From positions 1 through 64,000 of IMG/VR virus record IMGVR_UViG_3300047554_000329: a DNA stretch of 64,000 bases. One strand, written 5' to 3'. The position numbers and the translations under genes are program-made. Each line of letters starts with the position of its first letter. Position 1 is the stretch's first letter. Positions 1 through 19,623 of the stretch are shown here, in pieces. Source of the stretch: a virus. A model generated the notes under the pieces. It had not been told where the DNA came from, ran no database searches, and worked only from the letters and a program-made list of their open reading frames with translations.

Positions 1-192
1 AAGGCTACTCACTATGCTTTTGTGTTGGAGGGTATGGTAGTAATCCTACCAACAGACCAACTAAAAGAAATAACCTATAGTAATGGAAGACCTATCGAAT
101 GTAAGATAGAACCTAACCCATCTAAGGGATACTTAATCAAGCTATCACACATTGTAGAGTATCAGCTAAAACTTTCGGGGCATCAAAAGTGA
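1..192 (+). CDS. 3' end of a gene entering from the left; possible PD-(D/E)XK-like small nuclease
   Basis: Open frame KATHYAFVLEGMVVILPT...PNPSKGYLIKL...GHQK* ending TGA at 192; not in ORF track because truncated. Confidence 0.5.
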   Translation, partial: KATHYAFVLEGMVVILPTDQLKEITYSNGRPIECKIEPNPSKGYLIKLSHIVEYQLKLSGHQK

Positions 193-309
193 GCTTCGTA
201 ATCCCTAGTATAAGATATAAAGAGTAGGAGAAACACATGGTTGTTTTTGGAATTATATGTCTGATAACGTCTGGTTTGATATGGTTTTTGCTATATAAAA
301 GATAGCCAC

Positions 310-351
310 TTATCCACAGATATCCACAAACTTATCCACATTTTATCCACA
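310..351 (+). promoter_or_regulatory. Cluster of four head-to-tail DnaA boxes
   Basis: TTATCCACA at 310, 332, 343 and ATATCCACA at 320; further ATATCCACA at 556. Confidence 0.8.
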
Positions 352-842
352 TAAATCTTACTGATTATTTAGATAGTGATTGGAAAGAGAATATGGGGAT
401 TGGATAATGGATAACTGAGCCCATTATTAACAGGCTTCGTAATCATTTTATCCCCAAACCCCCTATCCCCATATATCCAAACACCTAAAACCCCTATAAA
501 TATACCCCCAAAAACATAGCAAAAATGTCCCAAAACATTAAATAAATAAACAAATATATCCACATTTGGGGAAAAATAAACCGATATCGTAATGTTTTTA
601 TATAGGGTGTTTATTGTATATTATACTAGGGAGAATCAAGACGTATTCTCTGTATACCCTGGCATAGCCAGCCACTACGTGGGGGTAGCTAAACTATACC
701 TGATACGTATATATACTATACTAGGGATAAACACTATAAAACTTTCAGCGATTTTTTGAGCTCCATCGTAATGTCTTTTTACAAACAAGATAAACAATGT
801 TTGGGGAAATTTGTTACCCTATCGTAATAAACTTTTGGGGAA

Positions 843-867
843 AAATGTCCGAGGTTCGTAATATAAT
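843..867 (+). promoter_or_regulatory. Rightward copy of the early promoter motif
   Basis: AAATGTCCG-AGGTTCGTAA-TATAAT, same 10-nt spacing as the leftward copies. Confidence 0.55.
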
Positions 868-923
868 TGTTTGGTATAACTTGTTTGGATTCGGGCTCTG
901 GCTCCCCCAAAGGGGAGACCAGT

Positions 924-1178
924 CTACTTGTCTAACAAATCTGCGATAGTTTCAAAACCGCTGTCTTCCAAATCCAAACCAGCAAGCAATAGGTCAAATG
1001 TTTCATTGACAAACTTCTCTGCTTGTGGAGTAACCTTGACGATACTGTTGCTAAGAGCATAAGCCAAAGGCAAGCCTAAGTCGTTATACTCAACAAAATC
1101 AGTAAACTCTTCGTCTTGGCGATACTCTAGCCAAACTTCCGCTAGTATGTGGCACTTGTTATCGAATGAAGTTTCCAT
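924..1178 (-). CDS. Hypothetical acidic protein (85 codons)
   Basis: ORF track; start moved to METSFDNK behind GAGAAG. Confidence 0.7.
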   Translation of the reverse strand: METSFDNKCHILAEVWLEYRQDEEFTDFVEYNDLGLPLAYALSNSIVKVTPQAEKFVNETFDLLLAGLDLEDSGFETIADLLDK

Positions 1179-1353
1179 TATCTTCTCTTTCTGCTTTCGC
1201 ACTTTCCGCTACAATCTGTAAGCGTCTGTATGAAACGCTTTCCGCATTTCTTCCAATGTATTCGCCAACCTGTTCTAAGTCAGTTCTAAGGTCAGTAACT
1301 AGGTCAGCAATCTTCTCTGCTACTTTCTCTTCGTGTGTTTTTATCTTACGCAT
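1159..1353 (-). CDS. Hypothetical protein
   Basis: ORF track, AGGAGA RBS, early promoter at 1379-1402. Confidence 0.75.
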   Translation of the reverse strand: MRKIKTHEEKVAEKIADLVTDLRTDLEQVGEYIGRNAESVSYRRLQIVAESAKAEREDNGNFIR

Positions 1354-1416
1354 AAATCTCCTATTTAGTTGTGCTTCGATTATACCTTATACCCCAGACA
1401 TTATGGGGAAGTTTGT

Positions 1417-1456
1417 GGGGGACTAGGACAAGAAAGGAAAAGAATCCCAGTCCCCC
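1417..1456 (-). other. Stable hairpin with pyrimidine-rich loop (terminator or small RNA element)
   Basis: GGGGGACUGGGA-UUCUUUUCCUUUCUUG-UCCUAGUCCCCC; fully paired only on minus strand (G-U). Confidence 0.55.
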
Positions 1457-1509
1457 TGTAGAGCCATACCCAACCCCTTAGATATTCTCTACTGTGATAG
1501 GGAGTAAAC

Positions 1510-1839
1510 TCAACCTACCAATTCTAAACTATACTTGCTAGCATCTGGTAACGTCTTCAGCAAGCTTGCAAGCCTAGGTGGAGCAATCTGTAGAAAGTTC
1601 TCTAGAGTGTCCGTCCAGTCATAGCCGTACTCTTTTTCTGGATACTGTGACCGTAGGTAACGTGCTTCTGCAAACGTTGTCTTATAAAGAATATTAGTAT
1701 AGTCAGTCTCAGTTCTACCGTCGTCATGCTTGGTCCAGACTACTGGGTTGATTGATAGAACATCTGCACTAACATACTCTTCGTGAAGTTCGTCATACAC
1801 CTCTTCGAAGTAGATGTTTAGGTCCCAGTCTTTAATCAT
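1510..1839 (-). CDS. Hypothetical protein
   Basis: ORF track; probable start MIKDWD overlapping upstream stop, GGAAGG RBS. Confidence 0.7.
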   Translation of the reverse strand: MIKDWDLNIYFEEVYDELHEEYVSADVLSINPVVWTKHDDGRTETDYTNILYKTTFAEARYLRSQYPEKEYGYDWTDTLENFLQIAPPRLASLLKTLPDASKYSLELVG

Positions 1840-2035
1840 TGTAGACACCTTCCTGAACATCCAAAGCAGTTCGCTGTAGAAGTTCGTCAAGATAGTTAGC
1901 GACTTGTCCTTGAACATCGTCAATGATACGTAGCCATAGTTCATCTGATAGCGGTAGTTCTACTAGGTCAGCGTCAAGGTAACTCTCAAAGTTCTCCTTG
2001 TCAATCTGCCATTCTTCAAACATTCTGGGGTCCAT
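1832..2035 (-). CDS. Hypothetical acidic protein
   Basis: ORF track; probable start MDPRMFEE. Confidence 0.65.
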   Translation of the reverse strand: MDPRMFEEWQIDKENFESYLDADLVELPLSDELWLRIIDDVQGQVANYLDELLQRTALDVQEGVYND

Positions 2036-2411
2036 AGATTTCTTCCATTTCTTCTCGTGTGTCAATCCAAATAGTGATGTAGCCATTGCCACGGCATTCA
2101 TCACAATCGATTATACCCTCACCCTCAGACATACAATCACATTCCTTGTCAATACTGACAGGAATTTCAATCAGGTCATCCCAAGGCTTTACAGTGATGT
2201 AGTATTGGATACGGTTTACTAGGTGGTAGCCAGATACGATAGAGACACCTTGGTCGCCATCCATCTCAGTCCAGATGTGCTTGTCATCCTGTTGTAGCAC
2301 ATACTGTAGTTCATCGCCATAGGTTTCGAACTGGTATTGCTCATCACCAGTAATCTCATTTAGGATTGGCTGGTATTTGTCAAACCATTCGTCATAGGGT
2401 AGTCTATACAA
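2016..2411 (-). CDS. Hypothetical protein with C-terminal CxC/CxxCxGxG zinc-binding motif
   Basis: ECDC...CDECRGNG. Confidence 0.7.
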   Translation of the reverse strand: MYRLPYDEWFDKYQPILNEITGDEQYQFETYGDELQYVLQQDDKHIWTEMDGDQGVSIVSGYHLVNRIQYYITVKPWDDLIEIPVSIDKECDCMSEGEGIIDCDECRGNGYITIWIDTREEMEEIYGPQNV

Positions 2412-2539
2412 TGCGTTGTCTCAATTCTTCTAGGGTTGCTTGGTCATACTCATTATACATCTCCCCTATGACATCTAATACCATGTTGATAGCAATGTCA
2501 TAGCCAAGGTCAATGGACCTGGTTTTCTCTCCTACTGTC

Positions 2540-2728
2540 TCACTCACCCTCTACCACCTTTGAGAAATCACTAATAGAATTAGAACGCATCAAGTCCATT
2601 AGGTCATAGACCGCTTGCTCTTCTGCTTCTTCAATGAACTCACTTTCAGGGATGTCTCTGCCTGTCATAAATCGCAGGGAATCCAAGTCATAGTCTAGTT
2701 CAATAATAAACTTTACAGACTTACTCAT
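2540..2728 (-). CDS. Hypothetical acidic protein
   Basis: ORF track; start MSKSVKF after GGAGG. Confidence 0.65.
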   Translation of the reverse strand: MSKSVKFIIELDYDLDSLRFMTGRDIPESEFIEEAEEQAVYDLMDLMRSNSISDFSKVVEGE

Positions 2729-2930
2729 CTTCTTCCTCCAACTCTTCTGGAGTGTAAACATTCTCAATGTCTACTGAATACCAATCGTAGGTAACACCTT
2801 GCTCGCTTGAGTAGGGTTTCCATTGCTCTGCTAGTTCTAGTGCTAGACGCTCTGCTTCGTCATAACTATCTGCCTCTACCCTGAACTCGTCGTCAAAGTG
2901 AAAGGATACTGTTACATCAAAAGTTGCCAT
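2721..2930 (-). CDS. Small acidic protein with VEADSYDEA motif
   Basis: ORF track, purine-rich RBS. Confidence 0.75.
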   Translation of the reverse strand: MATFDVTVSFHFDDEFRVEADSYDEAERLALELAEQWKPYSSEQGVTYDWYSVDIENVYTPEELEEEDE

Positions 2931-2967
2931 TGGGGTTCTCTTTCTCTAGGTTACTATTTTATCAGGT

Positions 2968-3498
2968 TTAGAAGTGAAAGTCAACAGGGACAAGGTAAAA
3001 GTTTTCACCCTCGTTACTGTCAATCTTGCTAAGGATGTGTGAAGCGTTAGTGCTATCAGCAATCATATCGAAGAACCAACTGTCGTGCCACCACTCACCC
3101 ATTTGAAATCTAAGCAAAGCATTTAGGGCGTAGAAGTGGTAGTCGTAGGACATAGTTCCACCATAGTTATCTAGTTTGTCAATGACTTTGGTTTCCTTGA
3201 CTTCGGCAAGGTATTTCTCATAGTCAGCAACACGCTGTTGAACACACTTGTCAATCTTTGCTCGGAAAGCGTTAGGGTCTTCCTTGTATGAGATAACCAT
3301 ATTGCTCTTGGTCTTGTAGGCTTCCTCAAAGTCGTCACCCTCAGCGGTATTCCAACGTCCTCCACCTACAACATACCAATCATACCAAGTAGACGGAGCG
3401 TCGTTACCAGACATATAACTCTCTAGGTTCATGTCTACGTTTCTTACTGCGTCATCTAGGTCTTCTGCTTCTACAGCAATCCAATGTAAAGTGTGCAT
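2968..3498 (-). CDS. Conserved phage hypothetical protein (WYDWYVVGGGRW ... VPVDFHF)
   Basis: ORF track, AGGAGA RBS, own promoter. Confidence 0.8.
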   Translation of the reverse strand: MHTLHWIAVEAEDLDDAVRNVDMNLESYMSGNDAPSTWYDWYVVGGGRWNTAEGDDFEEAYKTKSNMVISYKEDPNAFRAKIDKCVQQRVADYEKYLAEVKETKVIDKLDNYGGTMSYDYHFYALNALLRFQMGEWWHDSWFFDMIADSTNASHILSKIDSNEGENFYLVPVDFHF

Positions 3499-3638
3499 AT
3501 CTCTCCTTCTTGTTGTAGTTACAGTATACGATACCCCTCAGACATTTATTCTGGGAAATTTGGGGAAACATCGTAATGAATCGTAATAGAGAAATAATAT
3601 ATATAAAGATATATTATGTTAGGTGGGTCGGGCTCCCC

Positions 3639-3761
3639 CTACTTTTTGGGGCAGACCTTATGACCTATACGCTTGTAGTAGGACTTCCATACCTGACCAC
3701 ATTCTTTACACTGGTAGTAGTCGTAGTAGTCTTCACCTTTGATTTTCCACATTGGCTTCAT
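3639..3761 (-). CDS. 40-aa zinc-finger-like protein
   Basis: MKPMWKIKGEDYYDYYQCKECGQVWKSYYKRIGHKVCPKK*; below ORF-track cutoff; start overlaps upstream stop. Confidence 0.6.
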   Translation of the reverse strand: MKPMWKIKGEDYYDYYQCKECGQVWKSYYKRIGHKVCPKK

Positions 3762-3895
3762 TCGTCATCCTCTACAGGGGCGAACATCATTTGCATACGT
3801 CTAAACTCTTCATAACTAAGTTTATTTACAATGTTCCAGACACGCTCCATACGCTCTTTCTTTTCTTCAAACATTTCTTCTAGTGTTTGTTCCAT
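3758..3895 (-). CDS. 45-aa hypothetical protein
   Basis: MEQTLEEMFEEKKERMERVWNIVNKLSYEEFRRMQMMFAPVEDDE*. Confidence 0.55.
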   Translation of the reverse strand: MEQTLEEMFEEKKERMERVWNIVNKLSYEEFRRMQMMFAPVEDDE

Positions 3896-3996
3896 TCGTC
3901 CTTTGCTTTCTTGATAGTTTCAACGGCATTGGCAATAAGGGCTAATCCAAATACCGCCATTAGTAGAGGTAGAAAAATAAAGAATAGGATTTCCAT
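3880..3996 (-). CDS. 38-aa single-pass membrane protein
   Basis: MEILFLIFLPLLMAVFGLALIANAVETIKKAKDEWNKH*; TAATG coupling to upstream gene. Confidence 0.6.
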   Translation of the reverse strand: MEILFFIFLPLLMAVFGLALIANAVETIKKAKDEWNKH

Positions 3997-4100
3997 TACT
4001 TCCCCAATCCAAAGATGTGGTCAAGGTCGTGGGTGTGGTAGGCATTGCCAATCTTTTCTGGTCTGCCACAGGTTTTGCAAATGTTGTTGTCGTTACTCAT
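3996..4100 (-). CDS. 34-aa protein with CxxC and His residues
   Basis: MSNDNNICKTCGRPEKIGNAYHTHDLDHIFGLGK*. Confidence 0.5.
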   Translation of the reverse strand: MSNDNNICKTCGRPEKIGNAYHTHDLDHIFGLGK

Positions 4101-4293
4101 TCTCTTCGTCCTCGTCTTCCTCATCTTCTTCGTCTAGGGCTTCTACTTCGATAGAGTAAACTCCGTCATAGGTGATAGGGCTGGCGTAAGTTTCTCCCCA
4201 ACTTGTCCAAGCAAGTTGCTCTGCTGCTTCTTCGCTCTCTGCTTCAATCTCACCAGAGAACTCAATCATCATTTCTACTTGGTATCTAGGCAT
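4093..4293 (-). CDS. Very acidic small protein (IEAESEEAA motif)
   Basis: ORF track; start MPRYQVE after GAAAGGAAGG. Confidence 0.75.
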   Translation of the reverse strand: MPRYQVEMMIEFSGEIEAESEEAAEQLAWTSWGETYASPITYDGVYSIEVEALDEEDEEDEDEENE

Positions 4294-4403
4294 TTGCCTT
4301 CCTTTCCTTGTTGTTACTATTTTACATCTACCCTCCGACATTTATTTGGGGAAATCGTAAGGCTATCGTAAATTGATTGGGAGCTTGTAGCCCGACCCAT
4401 CGG

Positions 4404-4474
4404 CTCCCCACCAAGGATTCGAACCTCGATAGCCAGGACCAAAACCTGGAGTCTTGCCGTTAGACGAATGGGGA
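4404..4474 (-). tRNA. tRNA-Gln(TTG), CCA not fully encoded (CCG follows)
   Basis: TCCCCATTCGTCTAACGGCAAGACTCCAGGTTTTGGTCCTGGCTATCGAGGTTCGAATCCTTGGTGGGGAG: acceptor stem, CCAGG/CCTGG anticodon stem, GGTTCGAATCC T-arm. Confidence 0.93.
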
Positions 4475-4477
4475 GTG

Positions 4478-4506
4478 TGAGCAGTTTGAAATCATACTCA
4501 GGATTT
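4478..4506 (-). ncRNA. H-type pseudoknot copy 1
   Basis: AAAUC-C-UGAGUA-U-GAUUU-CAAAC-UGCUCA. Confidence 0.7.
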
Positions 4507-4511
4507 ATGGA

Positions 4512-5531
4512 CTAAGCCATTACAACCTGCTGGACAATCTTCATCAAGCGGTTTTTCTCTGCGTTGATTACAGGGTCAAAGCCAGAAGCACTTGCGTAGA
4601 TGTTTTCGTTGTCGCCACCACGAGCAGAGCGATACCAGTCTAGGCGTTCCGTCAATGCGTTGTAAGCACCCCAAGCAGTTCCGCTAATGGTGTCGTTGAA
4701 CTGACCACGATAGATTGACTGAAGCAGGTCTACCTTGCTGTCGTGCTTCTTGAATGAACCCTTAGCGTCACGCTCAGGAGCAGGGTAGGCAAGGTTGATG
4801 ATTTCTAGGAACTGGTTGTCAGTAACAGTCTTCTCAATCATCTCGTTAGCCATTTTGCTAAACTCGTCAATGTAAGCGTTAGCCAAGCCCAATGCTTCAC
4901 GAGCAACAGCAATCTTGCCTTCTGCGGTAGAAGTGTGACGGATTTTGAATGACTGCTTGCTAGCGTTCTTGCCCTTGAATGACGAGAGAGCAAGGTTTAG
5001 AGTGTTAGCACACACTACACGAACAGGGGTAATGGAAGCCTGAATAGCAATGCTTCCGTCGTGGCTAGTGTTGATTAGCAGGTAGTTGTCAATCTTGTCA
5101 GCAATACCCTTTGGGTCAAGAGTGATTGAGTTTTGAAGAGCGATAGAGCCAAATACCTGACGACCACCCTTGATTGAACCTGCGGTTTCCCAACGACCAC
5201 CGCCGTCTAGTAGGTTGTCACCAAACGAGAATAGGTCTTCGTTCTGGAGTGGAACATAGCGTTCACCAACAACACCAAGAATGTCGTTCTGGTCTTTGTT
5301 GAATGGGTTAGTGCGAGTAACGAAAGAGTAAGACTTGTCGCTAGCAAAACCTGCTGGGACTTCTACATCTTCAAGACGGACATTCCAGTTGTCTAGGTGA
5401 GCCAACTCTAGCATTTGCTGGGTGTTTACTTCTTCTTCGAATACAGTTCCTAGATTGTGCCACGCTGGTTGGCGTAGGCTAGCGAAGGTTGCTTCGCCTG
5501 TTGCTTCGTTGATTTCTAGTTCGTGAGCCAT
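4512..5531 (-). CDS. DUF932 / TIGR03299-type phage-plasmid protein
   Basis: AWHNLG, YVPLQN, WETAGSIKGGRQVF, LLINTSHDGS, TPVRVVCANTL, IRHT, GTAWGAYNALTE motifs. Confidence 0.88.
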   Translation of the reverse strand: MAHELEINEATGEATFASLRQPAWHNLGTVFEEEVNTQQMLELAHLDNWNVRLEDVEVPAGFASDKSYSFVTRTNPFNKDQNDILGVVGERYVPLQNEDLFSFGDNLLDGGGRWETAGSIKGGRQVFGSIALQNSITLDPKGIADKIDNYLLINTSHDGSIAIQASITPVRVVCANTLNLALSSFKGKNASKQSFKIRHTSTAEGKIAVAREALGLANAYIDEFSKMANEMIEKTVTDNQFLEIINLAYPAPERDAKGSFKKHDSKVDLLQSIYRGQFNDTISGTAWGAYNALTERLDWYRSARGGDNENIYASASGFDPVINAEKNRLMKIVQQVVMA

Positions 5532-5678
5532 AAGGCTTCCTTTCATTAGTGGTGGATTGTTGATAGTTCTATTATACAGACACCCACCGACATTGTAAAT
5601 AGTTTAGGGAAATATTTCGGGGAATCGTAACATTAACGTAATAAAGCTTAGTAGGAATGGAGCCCGACCCCCAAAGGG

Positions 5679-5706
5679 GACCAGTTTTACGTCATGGTCA
5701 GGACGT
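5679..5706 (-). ncRNA. H-type pseudoknot copy 2
   Basis: ACGUC-CU-GACCA-U-GACGU-AAAAC-UGGUC. Confidence 0.7.
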
Positions 5707-5716
5707 TCATAGCCCC

Positions 5717-6190
5717 CTATGAAATCACAGTGTAGTTGGAAATGTCAAAGTCACACTCTAGCACTTCGCTGTCGCTGTCGTAGGTGTCGAAGCGAACAAC
5801 ATCACAGTAGGCGTTGTCTGCTACTTCGTCAGGGTCTTTGTCGAATGGGACTTCAAACTCAACAGTAGAAACAATGTCATACTGAATGGTTACACGCTTG
5901 GTTAGCATTACATTGTCAAAGATGTCTGCAATCTTCTGAGCGTTCTCAATGGTGATGTCTTCATCAGAAATCATTTCCTTGAGTAGGTCAGTAAGAGCGT
6001 ATTCTGCCTTGCGATACTTGTCACGAGCGTTGGTTAGTTGAGTGTTGATAAAGTTGTTCTCGTTTTTGTTAGCATCTCGTTCAGCGGAAACGATAGACAA
6101 GTCATTCTCTAACTTACTAATCTTCTCGTTGAGTGCTTGTAGAACAGGGTGAGTGCTAGGGACAAATGTTCCTATGTTGATTTCTTCCAT
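5717..6190 (-). CDS. Hypothetical coiled-coil protein
   Basis: ORF track; start at MEEINIG downstream of the promoter at about 6219. Confidence 0.75.
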   Translation of the reverse strand: MEEINIGTFVPSTHPVLQALNEKISKLENDLSIVSAERDANKNENNFINTQLTNARDKYRKAEYALTDLLKEMISDEDITIENAQKIADIFDNVMLTKRVTIQYDIVSTVEFEVPFDKDPDEVADNAYCDVVRFDTYDSDSEVLECDFDISNYTVIS

Positions 6191-6241
6191 TGGGGCTTCT
6201 TTCTCTTGGTGTGGTTCTATTATAGCGTTAGGGTCAGACAT

Positions 6242-6442
6242 TTATCTGTCTTCCCATTCGGTTAGGTCTTCGTTGTTTAGGACAGCGTGAACAAAGTCAA
6301 ACTTGGCTCCGTCGTTTAGGTTGTCTAGTAGTTCCCATTGGTCTTCGTCTAGAGCGTCTACATCAAACATTAGAACCTGACTAACTCCGTAAGAACCATC
6401 AGTTTCAATCCACGCTCCGTAGCGTGATACATATTCTGCCAT
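6242..6442 (-). CDS. Small acidic hypothetical protein
   Basis: ORF track, GGAAAGG RBS, own promoter. Confidence 0.75.
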   Translation of the reverse strand: MAEYVSRYGAWIETDGSYGVSQVLMFDVDALDEDQWELLDNLNDGAKFDFVHAVLNNEDLTEWEDR

Positions 6443-6637
6443 TTCTTTCCTTTCCTTGTTACTACTATTATAAATAGAACCACGGACATTTATTTGGGGG
6501 AACTTAATGTAGTATCGTAAATGAAATAGCTATGGATAGCCCGACCCCAGGTAGCAAAAATCCCCCTGCTATTTACTAACAAGGGGATTGCTCTGGTAGC
6601 CATATAAGTTTCACTCTGCCACACCAGCCCAGAGTTA

Positions 6638-6667
6638 GAGCCTTTTAGACACTTGCTCAGGTGTTTA
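6638..6667 (-). ncRNA. H-type pseudoknot copy 3
   Basis: ACAC-CU-GAGC-AA-GUGU-CUAAAAG-GCUC. Confidence 0.6.
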
Positions 6668-6683
6668 GGCGTAAGCCTATGGA

Positions 6684-7121
6684 CTAGATTAGGTCTAGAA
6701 CGCTGTTGTAAGTGCTTGCGTTCACAGACTCTTGGTCAGTCAGTTTGAGTAGTTTGAGGGTCTTCTCCAACTGCTCTTTGTGCTGCTTTGCTTGCCAGCC
6801 ACCAACTTCTTGTGGTCGCTCTGGCTTGTCGCCTACCTTAGCAAGCAGACCCCTGCCAAGAACAACCTGAACTGTGTTGCGGTAGTCACTCGTCACAGAA
6901 AGGTTGTCGCTCTCAAACTTGAACTCATCATAAGCAACAAACTTGTTAGCGTTCTTGCCAATCAACTCAGCGACAGCCTTGCCATAAGCCTTGATGTCTT
7001 TGTTGAAGGTAGCGAGTAGACTAGGGTAGTCTTTCTCTGCCTTAGCGATTTCTGCCAACTTGTTCTCAATCATTTCGATAACTGTTGAAGTTGGGATTTT
7101 TACTGATACGGCTCTTGCCAT
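6684..7121 (-). CDS. Hypothetical protein
   Basis: ORF track; start MARAVSVK after AGGAG. Confidence 0.8.
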   Translation of the reverse strand: MARAVSVKIPTSTVIEMIENKLAEIAKAEKDYPSLLATFNKDIKAYGKAVAELIGKNANKFVAYDEFKFESDNLSVTSDYRNTVQVVLGRGLLAKVGDKPERPQEVGGWQAKQHKEQLEKTLKLLKLTDQESVNASTYNSVLDLI

Positions 7122-7187
7122 TTTATTTCTCCTTGTTTGGGGTTGTAACTTTATTATAGTGGGGACTACGGACATTTATTTGTGTGG

Positions 7188-7214
7188 TGGGCAGTTTATA
7201 GTGATACCCAGCAC
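7188..7214 (-). ncRNA. H-type pseudoknot copy 4
   Basis: GUG-C-UGGGUA-U-CAC-UAUAAAC-UGCCCA. Confidence 0.6.
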
Positions 7215-7220
7215 ATTTGG

Positions 7221-7373
7221 TTACTTGATAGTAGACCAGCGAGGCTGACCTGCTACATCAAGACGAACTCGGAACGAGCCGTTCTTGTTAGCCACAACTT
7301 CCTGAACAATGCCAGAAACGCCTGACTTCTGAGTGGTGAACTGTGAGCCAACAGTAGGGATAGTGATTGCCAT
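7221..7373 (-). CDS. 50-aa SH3/KOW-like beta protein
   Basis: MAITIPTVGSQFTTQKSGVSGIVQEVVANKNGSFRVRLDVAGQPRWSTIK*; promoter with TTGATA -35; below ORF cutoff. Confidence 0.7.
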   Translation of the reverse strand: MAITIPTVGSQFTTQKSGVSGIVQEVVANKNGSFRVRLDVAGQPRWSTIK

Positions 7374-8128
7374 TTTTGCTTCTTTCATTAGTTATTTGAT
7401 ACCAACAGGTTTGTTGATACCTCTATTATAGCAAGGGGGTCAGACATTTATCAACTCTACTTGTAATAGAATGTAACATCTTTAGTTTTTATTGGGGAGT
7501 GAGTTTTGTCTCTCCCTTGCTACAGTTCTATTATACGGATACCCACGGACATTTATTTTGGGAAATGGGGGATTTTTATCTTAATCGTAAAAAGTTTTTT
7601 GGTTCAGCTGCCCGACCCTTTCGGGTAGCCTATGAGGAATACAAAAAGTTCTTAGCAACTAGCCAAGTGCGATACATAACTTCATCGTCTTTACCAGAGA
7701 TGTCCCACTCCAATAGTCTGCCTATCAGGTGTGAGTTGCGGTCTTCCAAGTCTGCTAAGACTAAGGCGTATGCCTGTTCTAGTTCTTCGTTCATTAGTAT
7801 CCTGCTCTCTCTAGCATTGATAGTAGTTGGTCTACTTGCTCTGGGGTTAGTTCTTCGATTGCCTGTTCGTTGATTACATTCTCAAACATTTCTCTCCCTA
7901 CATAAACTCAAATGGGTCTCGGTCTTGAAAGATTTCTTCCCAATCTTCCAAAGAGTATTCTTCTGGGTTAGCAAAATAGTCTGCTAATGCTTCACGGATT
8001 TCTTGTGCTTGTTCATCGTTCATAACTTTATTATACATTGGGGGTCAGACATTTATTTCGGGAGGTTTTTAATAGTCTACGTAAAGGAGCTTTGCCTTGC
8101 CTGGATGCCCGACCCCTTTCGGGGTAGG

Positions 8129-8605: not shown

Positions 8606-8779
8606 TGTCCTCTTTCTTGTTGCTTTTAGTTTATCAGTAGCCACAGACATTTTAGTCTAGGTAAGTTTCAAACGAATACAGGTCTTCATCGTGCATTTGG
8701 CAGTAAGCGAAGTAACCTTTAGATACCGCTTCGAAACTAACAACAGACTGGCATCGGTTGCATCGGTAGTATTTAGCCA

Positions 8780-8950
8780 TTAGTAACTCTCCTTGATAGC
8801 CTTTAGTTTGTTTGCTTGACGGCTACCCTTGCGGTTTTCAGGGGTAACGATGTTGTGTTTAGTTAGTAGCATAGACTCAAACAAGACCTTAGCGTGAGCC
8901 TTGCGAGTTGCTTCGTTTAGTTTGCCTAGTGGCTTCGTTCTTTTCTTCAT
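8780..8950 (-). CDS. Small basic protein, probably leaderless
   Basis: ATG 6 nt after TATAAT. Confidence 0.65.
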   Translation of the reverse strand: MKKRTKPLGKLNEATRKAHAKVLFESMLLTKHNIVTPENRKGSRQANKLKAIKESY

Positions 8951-9051
8951 AGTCTTATTATACATCTAGGTTCAGACATTTATTTTGGGAGATTTTTAAT
9001 GTGTAACGTAAAGGGGTTTGGGCTGAGGAGCCCGACCCCTGGGGGTAGCGA

Positions 9052-9573
9052 TTACTCGCCACTCCCTCTCACTACAATCCAGATTAGGGCTTGCATTGCT
9101 CTAGGGGTCATGCCGTGTTTGGTAGCCACAGCGGTTACAGCGTCTGCCATTTCCTTATACTGAGACTGAGTAGGTGTCTTTTTCTCAATGCCCAATGCTC
9201 GCAACATCCAAACATCAATCACGACTGCGTTCTCGTTACCAGCAATAGCCTTAGCAAAGTTGTTAGTCTTTAGACCTTTGAGAGCGTCGAATCCTAGTGT
9301 TAGGGCTTTTTCTGCCATACGGATGTTGTTACCCAACACTCCCTTTAGTTCGTGACCAAGTGAAAACTTCACTGCATTACTAACATTACGAGACCAACGC
9401 TCACGAGGGCTAAAAGCAGATACAACAGTTGCTCCAATCTCAAGGGTAGTGTTTAGGTTAGTTGCTACTTCACGAGCAACGGTCTCAGCGTCTAGATACC
9501 ACTTAGTGGCTTGCTCAACCTGACCAAAGGTTGCTTTCTTAGCGATGTTTGAGTAAATGTCAATGTAGTTCAT
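9052..9573 (-). CDS. Conserved phage protein, possibly DNA-glycosylase (HhH)-like fold
   Basis: WY...SAFSPRERWSRNV...GLKTNNF...VVIDVWMLR...MQALIW pattern; start MNYIDIY after GAAAGG. Confidence 0.6.
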   Translation of the reverse strand: MNYIDIYSNIAKKATFGQVEQATKWYLDAETVAREVATNLNTTLEIGATVVSAFSPRERWSRNVSNAVKFSLGHELKGVLGNNIRMAEKALTLGFDALKGLKTNNFAKAIAGNENAVVIDVWMLRALGIEKKTPTQSQYKEMADAVTAVATKHGMTPRAMQALIWIVVRGSGE

Positions 9574-9801
9574 TGGATTCCTTTCGTTGATAAGATTAGT
9601 ATACATTGGGGGTGGGACATTTATTATCGTAACGTAAAAGAGCTTTTCCCAGGCTGCCCGACCCCCAGCACACCCTAGAAGGGTGGCTGAAGTTCCTCGT
9701 TCTCTCTCCAAAGTTTAGTAACTAGCCTAACAAGGATGATGTTCACTGCCGTAAGAAAAACCACGCCAGCAAGACAAACCCAAATAAGAAAACTAAGCCA
9801 T

Positions 9802-9981
9802 TCATTCATCTCTGCCTCCCCAGCAAGCGTCTACAAACTTTTCGGTAATAAAGCGTTCGTTGTCCTCACGAAACATCTGAGCAAAATCTTCAACCAAGTT
9901 GTCGAAAGTTGTTGCCTCAAAATAGTCAAGGTAGGAGTTTAGGATTGCTGCGGTAGACACATAGTCTTTGCGTGTCATCAT
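9802..9981 (-). CDS. Small conserved phage protein (MTRKDY...DNERF...F..AC)
   Basis: ORF track, trimmed start. Confidence 0.7.
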   Translation of the reverse strand: MMTRKDYVSTAAILNSYLDYFEATTFDNLVEDFAQMFREDNERFITEKFVDACWGGRDE

Positions 9982-10495
9982 TAGTTTTGCTCTCTTTCTG
10001 ATACTTCGATTAGTTTTAGTCTGTCTTTGTCTGATAGCATAGCCCAAGCATAGCCAAAAGCATAAGCGTAGGCTTCCGAGTTGCTAAAGCCTCTGGTGGT
10101 CATTATGTTTTTGATTACTTCGCTGGTTCTGAAGATTAGTTTTTCTTCCATTAGTTTTACCTTTCGTTGTGATTACAGTTTACCAAGACCCACAGACATT
10201 TATTCTGTAGGCTCTTGCCACTCAACGCCATTTACCCAAAAGCGAGCAATACGACCTTTGTAGTATTGGTCTGATAGGTATGGCGTTTGGTCTACATCTA
10301 GAGGACCTTCAATCTCAAAGGTAACTCCATTGTCCATTTCGATTACATAGATGTTCATTGTGTCTCGCATAGTCTTCCTTTCGTGTAGTTACATTTTAGC
10401 AGTAGCCTCAGACATTTATTCTGGGGAAAAATCTGGGACATTTTTAATGGGCTACGTAAACGAGCTTGCGAGGTCGCCCGACCGCCCTGGCTGCC

Positions 10496-10657
10496 TCAGT
10501 CGAAGCAGTTGGGAGCGTCTAGGAACTCGGCATAAGCCTCTTGCAAGGCTTGCTGGCGTTCAGCCCTGTCTTGGGCTGCCAACTCCTCTGGGGAGTATTC
10601 CTCCTCCTCAAAGAAGTAGTCCTCCGAGATGTCGCCCCAGCCGTAGTCGTCTTCCAT
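10496..10657 (-). CDS. Very acidic 53-aa protein
   Basis: MEDDYGWGDISEDYFFEEEEY...; GAAAGG RBS, own promoter. Confidence 0.7.
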   Translation of the reverse strand: MEDDYGWGDISEDYFFEEEEYSPEELAAQDRAERQQALQEAYAEFLDAPNCFD

Positions 10658-10918
10658 AAGTTTTCCTTTCGTTGATAATGCAAGTGTAACAAGACCCACA
10701 GACATTTTGGGGAAAAATCTTAAATCTATTTAATAACGTTTTGGTAACGATGGGGGTCGGGCTCGCAGCTGCTAGGCAGGGCGAACGCAGAGGTTACAGA
10801 CAAACATACTCTTGGCAACTAGCCTAACGAGGTAGGCATCAGCAGGGCGATTGCACAACTCGCAGAGGTGTTGCTTACGCTCTTCGGCGGTTAGTTTGAT
10901 GGCTGGCATAGGGTCTCC

Positions 10919-11164
10919 TTAGTTAGCGTGTGGGTAGTTTGGTGATAGGTCAAGGGTGTTGTAGGTTGCTTCATTCTTGTTCAGCAGGGTCAGGCGATAG
11001 ACGATGCCAGAGTCAGAGAAACGGCGAGCAACCTCAAAGTGTTCACACAAGCCAAAGTTTTTGATGTTCTTGCCGTCTGCGTAGGCTTGGGCAAAGGTGG
11101 GGTAGGTCTGGATGCTCTGGCTCACAAAGAGCAGGTTTGGGCTAAGGGTCAAGGGGAACTCCAA
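10919..11164 (-). CDS. Hypothetical protein
   Basis: ORF track, promoter at about 11184. Confidence 0.55.
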   Translation of the reverse strand: MEFPLTLSPNLLFVSQSIQTYPTFAQAYADGKNIKNFGLCEHFEVARRFSDSGIVYRLTLLNKNEATYNTLDLSPNYPHAN

Positions 11165-11288
11165 TCAATCAACTTACGAAGTAAGTCTAACAGCCACCTC
11201 AGACATTTATTATTATTTTGGGAAACATTTCGGGACATTTTTAATGCGTTACGTAAACCGTTATCATTTCGTTATGAAGCCCGACCCC

Positions 11289-11318
11289 TGTGGATAACTT
11301 TCGCTACCCTGTGGATAA
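11289..11318 (-). promoter_or_regulatory. Two perfect DnaA boxes 21 bp apart
   Basis: TGTGGATAA at 11289 and 11310, directly after GCCCGACCC. Confidence 0.8.
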
Positions 11319-11683
11319 CTATCGTGTCTTAGTGATTAGCAAGTTGAGGTAAGCCTGTCGAATCGCTTCAGGCAGTTGCTTATAGGTTTCGCTTTCGGCA
11401 AGGGTAGTTGCTCCCTTGTGCCAGATAATAGGGTGTAGTTCATCCATAAAAGCTTTTTCGCTTTTGGTCATTCTTGGCTTTGGCATTAGATAGCCTCCTC
11501 AGTAGCGTTGGCGTAGATAGAAGCGATAGAGGCAATAGCCTCCTCATACTCTTCCCAAGTATCAAACTTTAGAACAATCATTAGTTTACCTTTCGTTAGT
11601 TACAGAATACCATTAGGGTCAGACATTTATTTGCTAGGCTCACCTTGCGGATTATTTGCTAGGCTCTTGCGTGACCCTAAAAC

Positions 11684-11827
11684 TTACTTGTTTAGTTTGT
11701 CAAACTGAAACTGAAGCCAGTGAACCTCGTCATAGTCTTCAGGCGTGTCAATGCCTAGGGCGATTAGTTTGCCTAGGTTTTCAATGGCTAGGTCTAGGGC
11801 TAGTTTTGCGTCAAGTGCTTTCTTCAT
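11684..11827 (-). CDS. 47-aa hypothetical protein
   Basis: MKKALDAKLALDLAIENLGKLIALGIDTPEDYDEVHWLQFQFDKLNK*; GAAGGA RBS, own promoter. Confidence 0.6.
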   Translation of the reverse strand: MKKALDAKLALDLAIENLGKLIALGIDTPEDYDEVHWLQFQFDKLNK

Positions 11828-11945
11828 TTATTCCTTCTTTCTATCTACCTATAAGGTATCACGAACCACGGACATTTATTATTGTTTTGATAGGCTTTTA
11901 GCCCTATTGTTACGCATTGTTACCAAAATGTTACCAAACTTGGGG

Positions 11946-11991
11946 AACTAGATGTAGTGGTCTTAAGGTAAATGGCTACTAGATGTTGTGG
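11946..11991. promoter_or_regulatory. Tandem NrdR boxes
   Basis: ACTAGATGTAGTG (11947) and ACTAGATGTTGTG (11978), 31 bp apart; fit the CwAnATnTwGTG NrdR consensus. Confidence 0.75.
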
Positions 11992-12221
11992 AGCCCGACC
12001 CACGCTGTCGGGCGTGTCGCCAGGGTAGAGCTAGAACGGTGGCTTATTCCGTTCCAACTCCTCCTCTAGTGACTTGATAACCATTGACTTGTACCAAGCA
12101 TAGGTAGCCCAGCCCATTGACAGGAATAGAATCCAAGAAAGTGTAGGTGACATTTTTTCCTTTACTGATTGACTAGAACGAATAGAGCGATTAGAAGAAG
12201 ACTACCAATGACCACAGACAT

Positions 12222-12380
12222 TTAGATTGTTCCCCCTAGTTTCTCAATGTGACGAACAAGAGCAAGCATAAAATCTAGTTCTGCCATAGACAAGTAGTCT
12301 AGGTTTTCGGCTTCACGAACGAGCGAGTTTAGTTTTAGTTTTGCTTGCTTCAGGGTCAAGTCTGCTAGTGCTGTTTCCAT
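12222..12380 (-). CDS. Small helical hypothetical protein
   Basis: ORF track; start METALAD after GAAAGG. Confidence 0.65.
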   Translation of the reverse strand: METALADLTLKQAKLKLNSLVREAENLDYLSMAELDFMLALVRHIEKLGGTI

Positions 12381-12631
12381 TTTGTTACCTTTCGATTGGT
12401 TTGAGTTTAGCATAGGGGACGGACATTTTACTTTAGGATTTCCCAAGACTGCAGAAAGCCTTGAGCAAAAAGTTTCTTTGCCCAACGCAAGTTAGCAGGA
12501 GTATTAGGAATGATAGCGGAGCGACCCTCTGGGGTGATGATTTCGATTTGCATACCTGCAGTCTATCAGACAGGTCAGACATTTTGGGAAAATATTTGGG
12601 ACTTTTTTAATTCGTTACGTAACTGTTATAT

Positions 12632-12647
12632 TCGAAATTCTGTTCGA
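12632..12647. promoter_or_regulatory. Actinobacterial LexA SOS box (1 mismatch)
   Basis: TCGAAA-TTCT-GTTCGA vs TCGAAC-N4-GTTCGA; 1 nt before GCCCGACCC. Confidence 0.7.
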
Positions 12648-12707
12648 AGCCCGACCCCAAAAAGCTGCAAATGTCAAGTCCGACACGCCACTATTTTAGA
12701 CAAAAGA

Positions 12708-12737
12708 AAAACCCCAAGGTAGCGAACCAAGGGGTTT
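12708..12737. terminator. Bidirectional intrinsic terminator
   Basis: AAACCCC...GGGGTTT stem flanked by A and T runs. Confidence 0.7.
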
Positions 12738-13249
12738 CTTTTTGAAAGAATAGAGAACAAGTTTCCGAATTGCAGTCACGGAACCTATCTAGCGAATTGC
12801 TCAAAGTCAATCATTGCTCAGAGGATACATTTCATTCTGACTAGTATCTCATCCACGGCTAACCATAGTTTGTTGTTTAACATTTCTTTTTGTTTCTCTA
12901 TTTAATTTTCAATACTTTTAGTATAGCATCTTGGACTGACATCTGTCAAATCCGACACGCCGATTAGCGGATGAAGATTGCTTCTACGCTGTAGAAGTCA
13001 TCTCCTTCATAGCCACGGAAGATTGCTTCCGCTTGCTTGAAATCAACTACTAGAGATTCAACAATCTCCTTAGTCTCTTTTACCATTACATTCACTTGAT
13101 ATTTCATCATTTGATTTTTCCTATCTCTTAGATTCTTACTTATTTACTTTTTCTTTATACCCTTATTATAGGCATAAGCTCAGACAAAAGTCAAATCGAC
13201 ACGCCGTATTTTGGGGAAATTTTTTATAGCGTTATAAAAAACGTTATAT

Positions 13250-13265
13250 TCGAACAGATTTTCGA
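13250..13265. promoter_or_regulatory. Actinobacterial LexA SOS box (1 mismatch)
   Basis: TCGAAC-AGAT-TTTCGA; 1 nt before GCCCGACCC. Confidence 0.7.
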
Positions 13266-14122
13266 AGCCCGACCCACGCTGTCGGGCGTGTCGCCCTGGT
13301 AGCCCTATGGGATTAGACCTGCTGCCCATAGCAATAGGCTAACACTGCCTAGCACTAGCACACTGGCGAGGGTAACCATTATGACAATGGTCAAGTCATC
13401 TACTAGGTTACGCATTAGTTACACCATAGGCAGTTGATGTCGTCACAAGGGTTTTCTTCTGAGTAGTCTTCGTTTTCGTTCATTTGGTTTCTCCTTCTTG
13501 ATTACAGTTTACTTGATAGGTCAGACATTTATCGGTTGCGAACAAGGTCACGAACCTTGTCGATAAACCAACCTAGGGCTGGAGCGATAAGCACAAAGCC
13601 TAAGCCTAGGGCTACTACTGTTAGGATTGCTGTTACTACTGACATTTTCTTTTCCTTTGCTTCCTTGTAGTTACAGTCTATACCACTGGGCAGACATTTT
13701 GGGGGATTTTAACGTATATCTTATGTAACAATTTGGTAACGAAGCCCGACCCCAAAATCCTGGATTTGTCAAGTCCAAGCTTGGGCGTGTCGCAGGGTAT
13801 CTAGTGAGTGTCTAGCCAGTGCATTACAAAAGCAACAGCACCAACACCTAGAGCAGTCACGCCTAAGATTATCCAGACAAATAGTTGAAACATTTCCCAG
13901 TTCATTAGTTACCTACCTTTTCGTTGATACGGATAGCAGAACCTGCCTTGATTACGCCTACTAGAGCAGTAGCCTTCTTCATTGCTTGCTCACCATAGTA
14001 AGCAGACACTACTACCTTGAACGCTTCACCGTTCATTAGGTAACCGCCTACTTGCCATTCAGTCATTCTGTTCATTAGTTTACCTTTCTTGTTGTTATTA
14101 GTTTAGCAGATACCACAGACAT

Positions 14123-14293
14123 TTAGTCACAAAAGTAGCAACCGAATGAGTCATCGACAATAGCACCACACTGGTCACAGTCAGGGTATCGCTCTGGAGT
14201 CATTGCATCAGCGAGGGCTATGTTATCACGCTCAATCTTGTCAGCGTTCAACTGTGCTACTAGGTTTGCTACATACTCTAGGTCTACTGTCAT
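14123..14293 (-). CDS. Small protein with C-terminal zinc ribbon
   Basis: CDQC...CYFC; start MTVDLEY. Confidence 0.7.
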   Translation of the reverse strand: MTVDLEYVANLVAQLNADKIERDNIALADAMTPERYPDCDQCGAIVDDSFGCYFCD

Positions 14294-14475
14294 TTTTCTG
14301 TCCTTTGCTTCCTTGTGATTACAGTCTATACCATAGCACAGACATTTATTACCAAACACGCCAAATAAATGTAACAATTTCGGGGAAAAATCGTTATAGT
14401 TCTTAGCTTGACAAATCTCAAAATTTGGGTCGGGCATTTTTTTGTGGGAATGTCAAGCGACACGCCCAAACAAAG

Positions 14476-14640
14476 TTAGTTTTTGTGAGTAACTACTTTG
14501 TTGAAAGTGTAGTTTGCATAACCACTCTTTGACTTTACAGCAACACTCGTTACTGTAGGTTCACACTTGCAAGTTCCGTTTAGAGTGTGACCACTCATTA
14601 GGTCTACTACTGAACCGTTTTCGATTTTGTTTACTAGCAT
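14476..14640 (-). CDS. Small hypothetical protein
   Basis: ORF track; start MLVNKIE; first gene downstream of the promoter at about 14706. Confidence 0.6.
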   Translation of the reverse strand: MLVNKIENGSVVDLMSGHTLNGTCKCEPTVTSVAVKSKSGYANYTFNKVVTHKN

Positions 14641-14996
14641 TTTATTTCTCATTTCTCTTAGATTCTTACTTTTTATTTTCACTATTAACTTTTCTTCTTG
14701 CTATTAGTATACAGACCCCCACGGACATTATGCAAGTTTTAGCTGTAACATTAGGTAACATTTCTATAACGGATGGGTGCATAGTGTGCTCACTAAAAAA
14801 GAGGGGTGCCGTATAGGATACGTGTATCATTCATCTTTACAAAATATTCAGATTTTTGCCAATTTGAAAATTTTTTCAGATTTTCAGATTTTGGGGGTAT
14901 CAGATGTGTACTTCTGCTCCATACCACATAGCAATAGCTGCATATAGACAAATAAAGCCTATGCCTGATACGATAAGTGCAAAGACTTCAGCCCAA

Positions 14997-15227
14997 TCAA
15001 TTTTCTTTTTCATTCATTCTCTCTTTCGCATATGCGTGGCGGTATGTTTTATGAAAAGCTTTAGCATATATATGCATTTCTACAATATCTGGAAACACAC
15101 CTAGGTCTTTCTTGATAGCAGCTAAACATTTTTCGTGGATATAATCCTTTGAAAGTTCGTTGTAATAACGTCTATATTGTTTAAATTTTCGAAGGTACAT
15201 AAAAGCGAAGCTTTCTTGATTCACCAA
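14997..15227 (-). CDS. Hypothetical protein
   Basis: ORF track. Confidence 0.55.
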   Translation of the reverse strand: MVNQESFAFMYLRKFKQYRRYYNELSKDYIHEKCLAAIKKDLGVFPDIVEMHIYAKAFHKTYRHAYAKERMNEKEN

Positions 15228-15427
15228 TGTCCTTCAGGACACTTAGCTTGAACAAGGGTAGTCTTAAGTCTCATAAAACAACCACATTTGCGACATCTTT
15301 GTAAATTTTTGGCAAACCAGGGACACGTGTTACAAATTGCTAGACGAGCTTCTACTTGTTCTCTGTCTGCTTTTTGCTGGTTATGGTCAAAAAGGTCTAA
15401 AAATTCGACATCGCCGTTATCTTTCAT
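15221..15427 (-). CDS. Cys-rich zinc-binding protein (DUF6171-like)
   Basis: RLAICNTCP...CRKCGCFM..KT....CPEGHW. Confidence 0.7.
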   Translation of the reverse strand: MKDNGDVEFLDLFDHNQQKADREQVEARLAICNTCPWFAKNLQRCRKCGCFMRLKTTLVQAKCPEGHW

Positions 15428-15568
15428 AAGATATATTATAACACATATGGGGCTGTTAAGCCCTGGTGGTGTTTGGTTTACTCTATTTTCACGCCGAAAA
15501 ACTTACGCCGAGCTTTTTACCGCCGTATTTATATTCAGAAAACTAAATAATCATATATAATTGAGAGT

Positions 15569-15841
15569 ATGACAATGTTAGAATCAGTGCTTGCTATTAC
15601 TATTAGTATTTCAACAATCATAACGACTATTGGTTTAGGAGTTAAATGGTTAGTCAAACACTACTTCGAAGAAATCAAGAAAGAAATCAAACCTAATAGT
15701 GGTTCTTCTATGAAAGACCAAGTAACTAGATTAGAATCAAGAACTGAAGCTGTAGAAGAAAAAATAGACAAACTATATGATTTGTTAATTACGCAAGGTG
15801 TAAGAACAGTTTCATCAAGAACTAAAAAATCCGACGATTGA
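15569..15841 (+). CDS. Membrane protein, DUF2746-like (holin/lysis accessory candidate)
   Basis: N-terminal TM helix followed by PNSGSSMKDQVTRLE and coiled coil; ATG 7 nt after TATAAT. Confidence 0.65.
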   Translation: MTMLESVLAITISISTIITTIGLGVKWLVKHYFEEIKKEIKPNSGSSMKDQVTRLESRTEAVEEKIDKLYDLLITQGVRTVSSRTKKSDD

Positions 15842-16014
15842 TTATTATTATATATTTAATATATATCTTATAGTTTAATATATTTATATATTATATATAT
15901 CATCTATCTATCTATTAATATATATAGTACCACACGCCGAACGTTTGTCAAGCCCTTTTTTGCATATTTTATGATAACTTTTAGATAACGATTTTATTCA
16001 CAGAGTTATCCACA
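15841..16014. other. AT-rich tract next to DnaA boxes; origin- or terminus-like region
   Basis: About 85 nt almost pure A/T (15841-15926), then TTATTCACA (15994) and TTATCCACA (16006). Confidence 0.45.
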
Positions 16015-16034
16015 GGTTGTGATATAATATATTT

Positions 16035-16090
16035 GCTAGTATCTTTGGTGTCTCTCTCACATACCCACCGCCGAGGATACTAGCTTTTTC
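16035..16090 (+). ncRNA. Candidate stand-alone hairpin sRNA
   Basis: TATAAT at 16025; 16-bp stem with G-U pairs on + strand, C/U-rich loop, U-run. Confidence 0.5.

Positions 16091-16120: not shown

Positions 16121-19623
<3,503 letters not shown>

Follow-up and report, generated by a model that had tools for sequence, protein, structure and literature searches.

We analyzed the first 64 kb of the complete 92,924-bp virus record IMGVR_UViG_3300047554_000329 (IMG/VR), a stretch of 64,000 nucleotides that is called the window here, with a focus on an early region in which about 15 repeated promoter cassettes lie between small genes. Each cassette contains a short repeated GC-rich word, the anchor, and six have near-perfect sites beside it for host-type regulators of replication, DNA damage, DNA precursors and, probably, nitrogen. 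The genome ends in 127-bp direct terminal repeats and has a G+C content of about 42%. Between positions 900 and 15,430 the genes are all small and leftward and nearly all of unknown family; since these early genes run leftward, the finding is read on the minus strand. Structural and replication genes run rightward from about 16.1 kb, with portal, protease and capsid genes among them. We interpret the left 16 kb as the early arm, running leftward, of a phage of lytic type that is related to Stanwilliamsviridae.

Read leftward, a cassette consists of a G-run or small hairpin, the anchor, a slot of variable content, TTACG(A/T) boxes, TCCCC(A/G)AA boxes, the (A)AATGTCYG promoter core and, after about 10 nt, TAnnnT. 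A preliminary description of this DNA, made from its letters only, had proposed this layout, and both the layout and the coordinates given for it checked out throughout; the layout is common to all 15 anchors. The G-run before the anchor often closes a small GAAA- or TTCG-looped hairpin. The anchor lies upstream of the leftward core at an anchor-to-core distance of 48-119 nt, and a strict regular expression recovered the core at 14 of the 15 anchors. Across the whole genome there are 15 copies of the anchor, counting GCCCGACCC and its complement, 12 on the plus strand and 3 on the minus strand, all of them within 3625-14435; a back-to-front control of the pattern gave 0 copies. The anchors and promoters are as follows.

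4390, 5662, 6539, 7610, 8107, 9030, 9656, 11279, 11993, 12649, 13267 and 13744, plus strand: anchor GCCCGACCC
3625, 10754 and 14427: complement of the anchor, GGGTCGGGC as read on the plus strand
1379..14730, minus strand: about 31 leftward promoters of one non-canonical type, with core TGTCN(G/A), 9-11 nt, TAnnnT
12920..12960, minus strand: second promoter form, GGCGTGTCG, 3 nt, TTGACA, 18 nt, TATACT, with 11 of 12 sigma-70 matches
13165-13205: further copy of the second promoter form
12660-12690, 13760-13795 and 14440-14465: copies of the second form with the anchor in the -10 place

In place of a good -35, the leftward promoters usually have TCCCC(A/G)AA boxes and phased TTACG(A/T) boxes. 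Within positions 1-16100 the core was found 31 times on the minus strand versus 4 times on the plus strand, and AAATGTCYG 22 times versus once. Canonical sigma-70 promoters were not enriched (35 versus 30.5). Canonical intrinsic terminators were not enriched either, with 10 terminator-like sites versus 13.4 in shuffles and none at an anchor, and RNA folds of the 15 junctions were inconsistent.

A DUF932 profile search of IMG/VR returned 503 related stretches, and the counts given below for relatives refer to 82 loci (1.33 Mb), oriented with early transcription. The promoter core and cassette layout are common to all 82, and across them the TTACG and TTAAGA boxes lie at a fixed or phased distance to the core. 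The invariant 9-mer GGCGTGTCG was found 234 times versus 0, at a fixed 10-12 nt before the TGTC core. GACAC is part of this 9-mer, and TGTCAA is the complement of the TTGACA -35. The preliminary description had read GACAC/TGTCAA (12672, 14451) as WhiA or MtrA operators; that assignment was not supported, the letters being the reverse complement of a promoter element found across the family, GGCGTGTCG plus the TTGACA -35. The MtrA-type repeat GTCACA-N5-GTCACA had 0 copies in the relatives.

The sites of LexA, NrdR, DnaA and GlnR type, and the DnaA clusters at the edges of the arm, are listed here.

310..351, plus strand: DnaA cluster, perfect boxes at 310, 332 and 343 and one with one mismatch at 320, within the 620-bp non-coding stretch (300-920) at the arm's far end
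10733..10749: RTAACR-N5-RTAACR direct repeat, GlnR-box-like, 11-bp period, 4 nt from anchor 10754
11260..11276: RTAACR-type direct repeat, 2 nt from anchor 11279
11289..11318, minus strand: DnaA pair (TGTGGATAA on the plus strand at 11289 and 11310), beginning 1 nt past anchor 11279-11287
11909..11934, minus strand: three GTAAC half-sites at distances of 11 and 10 nt, with the NrdR pair on one side and the promoter of a 47-aa gene on the other
11945..11991: NrdR-type double box, two 16-bp boxes with a 15-bp linker, CCACAACATCTAGTAG-N15-CCACTACATCTAGTTC read leftward
12632..12647: LexA (SOS) box TCGAAATTCTGTTCGA, 1 nt from anchor 12649
13250..13265: LexA (SOS) box TCGAACAGATTTTCGA, 1 nt from anchor 13267
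13725..13741: RTAACR-type direct repeat, 2 nt from anchor 13744
15994..16014, plus strand: DnaA boxes, TTATTCACA with one mismatch at 15994 and perfect TTATCCACA at 16006, where the early arm and the structural genes diverge

A host-type site was found within 55 nt at 6 of the 15 anchors, all at 10.7-13.8 kb, where 0.024 were expected with shuffled flanks and 0.69 at random places in the arm. In the relatives, sites lay no more than 6 nt from the local anchor in 25-51% of cases, versus 7% for random upstream places. The proposal that varied motifs abut the anchor therefore stood for these six anchors and not for the rest, and the DnaA pair abuts from the other side. Enrichment over shuffled DNA and conservation in related phages, both set beforehand as tests that could refute the array, came out in its favor: the number of sites greatly exceeds chance expectation, and many relatives likewise have them next to the local anchor. 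The NrdR, LexA and DnaA assignments also agreed with published sequence criteria. No LexA DNA-binding, DnaA C-terminal, ATP-cone (NrdR-type) or OmpR-type domain was found in the complete phage genome, which extends the earlier remark that the window lacks genes for these regulators and suggests that the readers of the sites should be host proteins.

The NrdR-type double box ends 1 nt from anchor 11993. NrdR operators are described as 16-bp boxes with C4, A6, A8, T9, T11 and G13, a linker of 15-16 bp and an AT-rich core (PMC13584703, PMC12051234). Heterologous consensus sites can also be bound by S. coelicolor NrdR (PMC13584703). At 11945-11991 all 12 of 12 key positions match (C4 A6 A8 T9 T11 G13, twice), and A+T between C4 and G13 is 6/8 (75%) in both boxes, where at least 63% is called for. 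This is the only NrdR pair in the genome, with no other at one mismatch or fewer, and about 0.01 perfect pairs were expected from 200 Markov shuffles of the genome. The site stands upstream of the 47-aa gene, about 95-140 nt upstream of its start, and ends 71 nt upstream of the promoter core (which ends at 11874), without overlap with the promoter. An NrdR operator should also lie over the promoter of a ribonucleotide reductase (RNR) operon; this one does not, the phage nrdJ being far off at 25929-27947. The relatives contained 42 perfect pairs, 25 with a 15-bp linker and 17 with a 16-bp linker, compared to 0 at linkers of 12, 13, 14, 17, 18 or 20 bp and 1 for the reversed pattern. Pairs with one mismatch were not in excess, suggesting that the real sites are full-consensus, and 30 NrdR sites in the relatives are distinct in sequence.

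The actinobacterial LexA motif is tCGAAC-N4-GNNCGa (PMC9380542). Both boxes in the window match TCGAAC-N4-GTTCGA at 11 of 12 positions and are the sole sites in the genome with one mismatch or fewer, 2 versus 0.06 expected (200 Markov shuffles); the two LexA modules are paralogous and are thus counted as one event. In the relatives we recovered 27 LexA boxes (7 perfect and 20 with one mismatch); the reversed pattern gave 2, and spacings of N3 or N5 gave 0-1. Many of the boxes immediately follow the local anchor, which in some cases has a DnaA pair on its opposite side.

Perfect DnaA boxes (the 9-mer TTATCCACA) were found at 310, 332, 343, 11289, 11310 and 16006 and nowhere else in the genome, where 1.0 was expected per shuffled genome (200 Markov shuffles) and 0.15 for the shuffled early arm. 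The pair at 11289-11318 lies on the promoter-distal side of its anchor, the opposite side from the other slots. Pairs flanking the anchor recur in relatives, which contain 303 perfect boxes versus 12 in the control, mostly as pairs TGTGGATAA-N3-TGTG(G/T)ATAA that are oriented with transcription in 64 cases versus 8. The extra boxes reported at the two edges of the arm were present, and clusters stand there in relatives as well: an orthologous cluster follows 'CAGTAAGAT' in L009, L010, L011, L012 and L015, and clusters equivalent to 15994-16014 were found in L014, L015 and L017. Conserved at both arm edges, the clusters at 310-351 and 15994-16014 may be replication elements, and the 300-920 stretch is a candidate origin or DnaA-controlled region. 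In that stretch there are four direct DnaA boxes and five CGTAA boxes, together with runs of TATCCCC/ACCCC repeats. In several relatives the orthologous DnaA cluster has a perfect NrdR pair some 100 nt away, a pair that appears decayed in the window. At the other edge, 15840-15960 is an extremely AT-rich run of (TA)n/TATC repeats between the last leftward and the first rightward gene, beside the DnaA boxes at 15994-16014.

The repeat first written as GTnAY-N6-GTnAY is RTAACR-N5-RTAACR, the commonest element of the family, found in the relatives 287 times versus no more than 14 at other spacings; the copy at 10733 is kept in the orthologous module of L009. The distance from the pair to the core took the values 22, 31-33, 42-43 and 53 nt for forward pairs and 16-17, 26-28 and 36-39 nt for reverse pairs, and this phasing persisted among modules less than 80% identical. 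Such phasing reads as the signature of a face-of-helix activator site, and because the pairs are helically phased, activation at these promoters is favored and not decoy. The sites' upstream position had been taken earlier to favor decoy or activation, and for the phased RTAACR pairs the activation part was supported and the decoy part was not. With both the RTAACR and the TTACG boxes phased, the region from anchor to core would be a working upstream regulatory region. Published GlnR boxes are GTnAC-n6-GTnAC and t/gTAAC-n6-Gc/aAAC (PMC10704036). The RTAACR pairs fit this actinomycete GlnR box by half-site and spacing. ATAAC half-sites outnumber GTAAC, and other OmpR-type proteins use similar repeats, so that the reader could instead be MtrA, PhoP, another OmpR-family protein or an unrecognized phage protein. 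PHO boxes (GTTCACC-N4-GTTCACC) were tried and rejected, with only 2 found in the relatives. At L010:2480-2545 the anchor is immediately followed by two perfect GTTCACC units at an 11-bp distance; we take these to have the form of the Streptomyces PhoP PHO box.

The anchor word itself differs between genomes. The window's word is absent from every relative except L049; each has its own word, among them GGTGCCCC, GAGCGCCC, GGCCGACC, GGGGCCCC and GCTCGGGC, and about 12 anchor classes recur among the relatives without tracking protein identity. When orthologous spacers of the window and L009 were compared, the flanks were almost identical and the anchor word alone was exchanged. Blocks of homology with L009 often begin 6-26 nt past an anchor, and breakpoints fell near anchors in 6 of 23 blocks. 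The orientation of the anchor varies at the same module position in relatives, and in 21% of 519 anchors it lies 14-16 nt past TTGAC(A/T), at the place of a -10. The anchor was considered as a strand-specific -10 of a TTGACA promoter and this was rejected: the 14-16 nt spacing is real, yet both orientations occur. A reading of the anchor as one arm of a decayed perfect hairpin holds at 11993 and 13267 only, and a Chi-like or restriction-like word was ruled out by the fixed module position and mixed orientation. A screen for an early protein that co-varies with anchor class gave no clear candidate. The exchange of the word and its occurrence in either orientation in place suggest recognition as double-stranded DNA by a factor of changeable specificity, and the anchor is probably read in that form by a factor that differs between phages or hosts. 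It is possibly a new element.

On the strength of these patterns in the DNA, we give an even chance to the interpretation that the early promoter cassettes are wired to the host and sense its state through cis-regulatory gating. The slot and the upstream boxes would be cis-regulatory inputs read by host proteins. The GlnR-type direct repeats would be activator sites, as the observed phasing suggests, and the LexA, NrdR and DnaA sites in a subset of cassettes would be repressive or gating inputs. Gating might act by anti-activation of neighboring boxes or by a block to read-through at the terminator-poor joint. Single early genes would in this way be tied to DNA damage, to deoxynucleoside triphosphate (dNTP) and replication status and to nutrient state, and the cassettes would also serve as joints for mosaic exchange, like the promoter-early stem-loops (PeSLs) of T4-type phages.

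Several results weigh against host sensing. Some 40-140 nt separate the LexA, NrdR and DnaA sites from the core downstream of them, with no phasing to it, which makes classical promoter occlusion unlikely. The same downstream gene family has different slot contents in different phages, so the case for gene-specific regulation is weak. The NrdR and LexA sites are almost all full-consensus, a state that would also suit a regulator sponge, and a perfect NrdR pair is present in about 31% of near-complete arms and a LexA box in about 31%. The GlnR assignment depends on likeness of motif, and host sensing does not account for the function of the anchor.

An alternative, which we consider unlikely, is that the sites form a regulator sponge: replicating phage DNA would titrate host NrdR, LexA and DnaA through high-affinity sites that regulate nothing in cis, so that nrd and SOS genes are derepressed and host initiation is disturbed. 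The E. coli datA locus is a precedent for titration of DnaA. The sites suit a sponge in that essentially all are full-consensus with no excess of weaker copies, that they lie unphased and far from the core, that they are only loosely tied to which gene lies downstream and that the NrdR pair is nowhere near the phage nrdJ; the phage lacks such regulators of its own, and some relatives have 3 NrdR pairs or up to 14 DnaA boxes per arm. The copies here are few, however (1 NrdR pair, 2 LexA boxes and 6 DnaA boxes), and they are confined to one fixed place in the promoter cassettes of the early arm, with DnaA pairs oriented with transcription and NrdR or LexA sites in only about a third of the relatives. 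The neighboring RTAACR boxes behave as true promoter elements. The phage also brings its own RNR, ThyX, RecA and replisome. The preliminary description had suggested that titration derepresses host RNR, for which there is no obvious need, because the phage has a class II RNR, DNA polymerase III (Pol III) alpha, DnaB, primase and RecA.

It is less probable, and in our estimate distinctly doubtful, that the sites act as a conditional insulator. A host protein bound past the junction would be a roadblock to RNA polymerase arriving from the cassette upstream, and its release (cleavage of LexA, loss of dATP-NrdR or a change in DnaA) would allow read-through to turn on genes downstream and would time the passage from early to middle expression. 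The sites abut the junction and not the promoter, and the DnaA pairs are biased in orientation; because none of the junctions is a canonical intrinsic terminator, it is plausible that transcription needs additional help to stop there. Cluster A mycobacteriophages provide a precedent in their stoperators, intergenic sites at which elongation is blocked by a protein (PMC9283540). An insulator is at odds with the DnaA pair of the window, which lies beyond the anchor in an orientation opposite to that in most relatives, and with the lack of any such site in most cassettes.

A replication role is quite improbable as an account of the array. It would make the edge DnaA clusters, and perhaps those at the anchor, replication elements (an origin used through host DnaA), with the LexA- and NrdR-like sites read by look-alike phage proteins. 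The edge clusters are indeed kept in position in relatives, in non-coding repeat-rich DNA, the NrdR pair lies about 100 nt from the terminal DnaA cluster in several of them, and many early proteins are without a known family. That the phage encodes its own DnaB, primase and Pol III alpha and no recognizable initiator is neutral either way. Convergence would not easily produce the NrdR linker of 15-16 bp with its six-position rule or the exact actinobacterial SOS palindrome, and in L077 a single arm has DnaA pairs in many of its cassettes, which would be unexpected of origins. Chance resemblance in repetitive intergenic DNA, for which it could be said that the two LexA modules are one paralogous event and that several motifs were tried by the earlier reader after seeing the sequence, is effectively refuted by controls with shuffles, reversed patterns and other spacings, both in the window and in the 1.33 Mb of relatives, and is left with a negligible probability.

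The architecture is best described as a variant of host-regulated phage promoters combined with PeSL-like cassettes, a design that recurs in more than 80 related phages. The PeSLs of T4-type phages (PMC2839356, PMC4122927) resemble the cassettes in that a repeated stem-loop or junction is joined to an early promoter between small genes, and in that the early region is plastic, with its mosaic breakpoints located at the cassettes. They differ in belonging to another phage lineage with another promoter; the junction here is no canonical terminator and its stem-loop is inconsistent. The cassettes also carry interchangeable host-regulator sites and a genome-specific word, unlike PeSLs as described. 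Compared to bacterial NrdR operators (PMC13584703, PMC12051234), the phage site follows every rule for box, linker and AT-core, yet it lies away from any nrd gene and does not overlap a promoter. The LexA boxes are of the same 16-bp palindrome type as actinobacterial (PMC9380542) or Gram-positive SOS boxes, with perfect copies in relatives. The RTAACR pairs share with GlnR boxes (PMC10704036) the half-site and the 11-bp period and lie at phased distances upstream of a weak -35; they differ in having more ATAAC than GTAAC half-sites.

Among known elements the anchor comes closest to the Cluster A stoperator (PMC9283540, PMC6550527), of which there are likewise many short asymmetric intergenic copies that differ between related phages. 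Stoperators are 13-14 bp long, follow the direction of transcription and are recognized by the phage immunity repressor, whereas the anchor is 8-10 bp long, occurs in either orientation and in the early arm only, and no cognate protein was found for it. We propose, tentatively, that the anchor is the word of a trans-acting factor whose specificity is swapped between close relatives. With an adjoining host DnaA, LexA, NrdR or GlnR it might form a programmable junction (an insulator, a roadblock or a regulator trap) through which a lytic phage, by way of a single modular early array, could read four global circuits of its host or rewire them. If true, this would be a new kind of phage regulatory architecture, present in several hundred uncultured genomes.

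Control of phage genes by LexA is known from temperate phages, and DnaA is used at promoters and origins of lambda. The genome analyzed here, unlike LexA-controlled temperate phages, looks lytic, and its boxes lie at the cassette junction and not over the -10/-35. What sets it apart is that a lytic-type family places near-perfect sites for several unrelated global regulators at one position of a cassette and that these sites are shuffled among cassettes and genomes alike. The NrdR operators stand as 'orphans' at a distance from every reductase gene, and at the cassette joint there is a word, specific to the genome, that is rewritten in concert. Were the sites sensors, the virus would time its program by the DNA-damage, dNTP, replication and nutrient state of the host; were they sponges, they would represent a protein-free host takeover. 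We found no paper on phage NrdR boxes away from nrd genes, nor on this combined array.

The genome looks lytic because no tyrosine or serine recombinase or integrase domain was found in it; no integrase or repressor was found in the genome. Its closest cultured relatives are Streptomyces phages of about 130 kb in Stanwilliamsviridae, to which the protease is 42-55% and the DUF932 protein 54% identical. Jay2Jay, one of the cultured relatives, has the syntenic arm, but NrdR, LexA and DnaA boxes were not found in it, and hence we found no cultured model. Pfam and PHROGs searches with 20 early proteins matched only DUF932 and DUF7178. DnaB and primase are encoded by the phage, and the last 29 kb contain RecA, ThyX, PstS and a pyrimidine-dimer glycosylase. 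Other genes referred to in the text are these.

4402-4474, minus strand: tRNA-Gln(UUG), inside the cassette array, with anchor 4390 directly after its 3' end
16501-19623 and 23293-25863: genes of a 1040-aa and an 856-aa protein
25929-27947: NrdJ (class II RNR)
61067 onward: Pol III alpha

The host is probably actinobacterial, judging from the sequence. Several early genes are leaderless, because the start falls 6 nt after the -10 (TATAAT, 6 nt, ATG). Leaderless starts are common in Actinobacteria, and those found here are consistent with an actinobacterial host. At 8020-8040, 8945-8965 and 12545-12575 such starts lack a Shine-Dalgarno sequence, with the ATG 6 nt past the -10. A PstS-like phosphate-binding protein is encoded at G000 90662-91663 (L021:8662-9663); its nearest cellular sequences are mostly from Actinomycetota metagenome-assembled genomes, at just 33-35% identity. 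The PstS and RecA comparisons are a weak pointer to Actinomycetota as the host.

The tRNA-Gln(UUG) gene has 83% identity to tRNA genes of Gordonia phages, and the anchor begins 4 nt past its 3' end. A 163-aa early protein (6684-7175) is 36-42% identical to its closest relatives, with flanking proteins at 70-95%, and appears to be a fast-evolving protein of unknown family. Among the rightward genes, the 1040-aa protein has long collagen-like Gly-X-Y repeats and the 856-aa protein an N-terminal domain of the major tropism determinant (Mtd) type; both are probable fiber or receptor-binding proteins.

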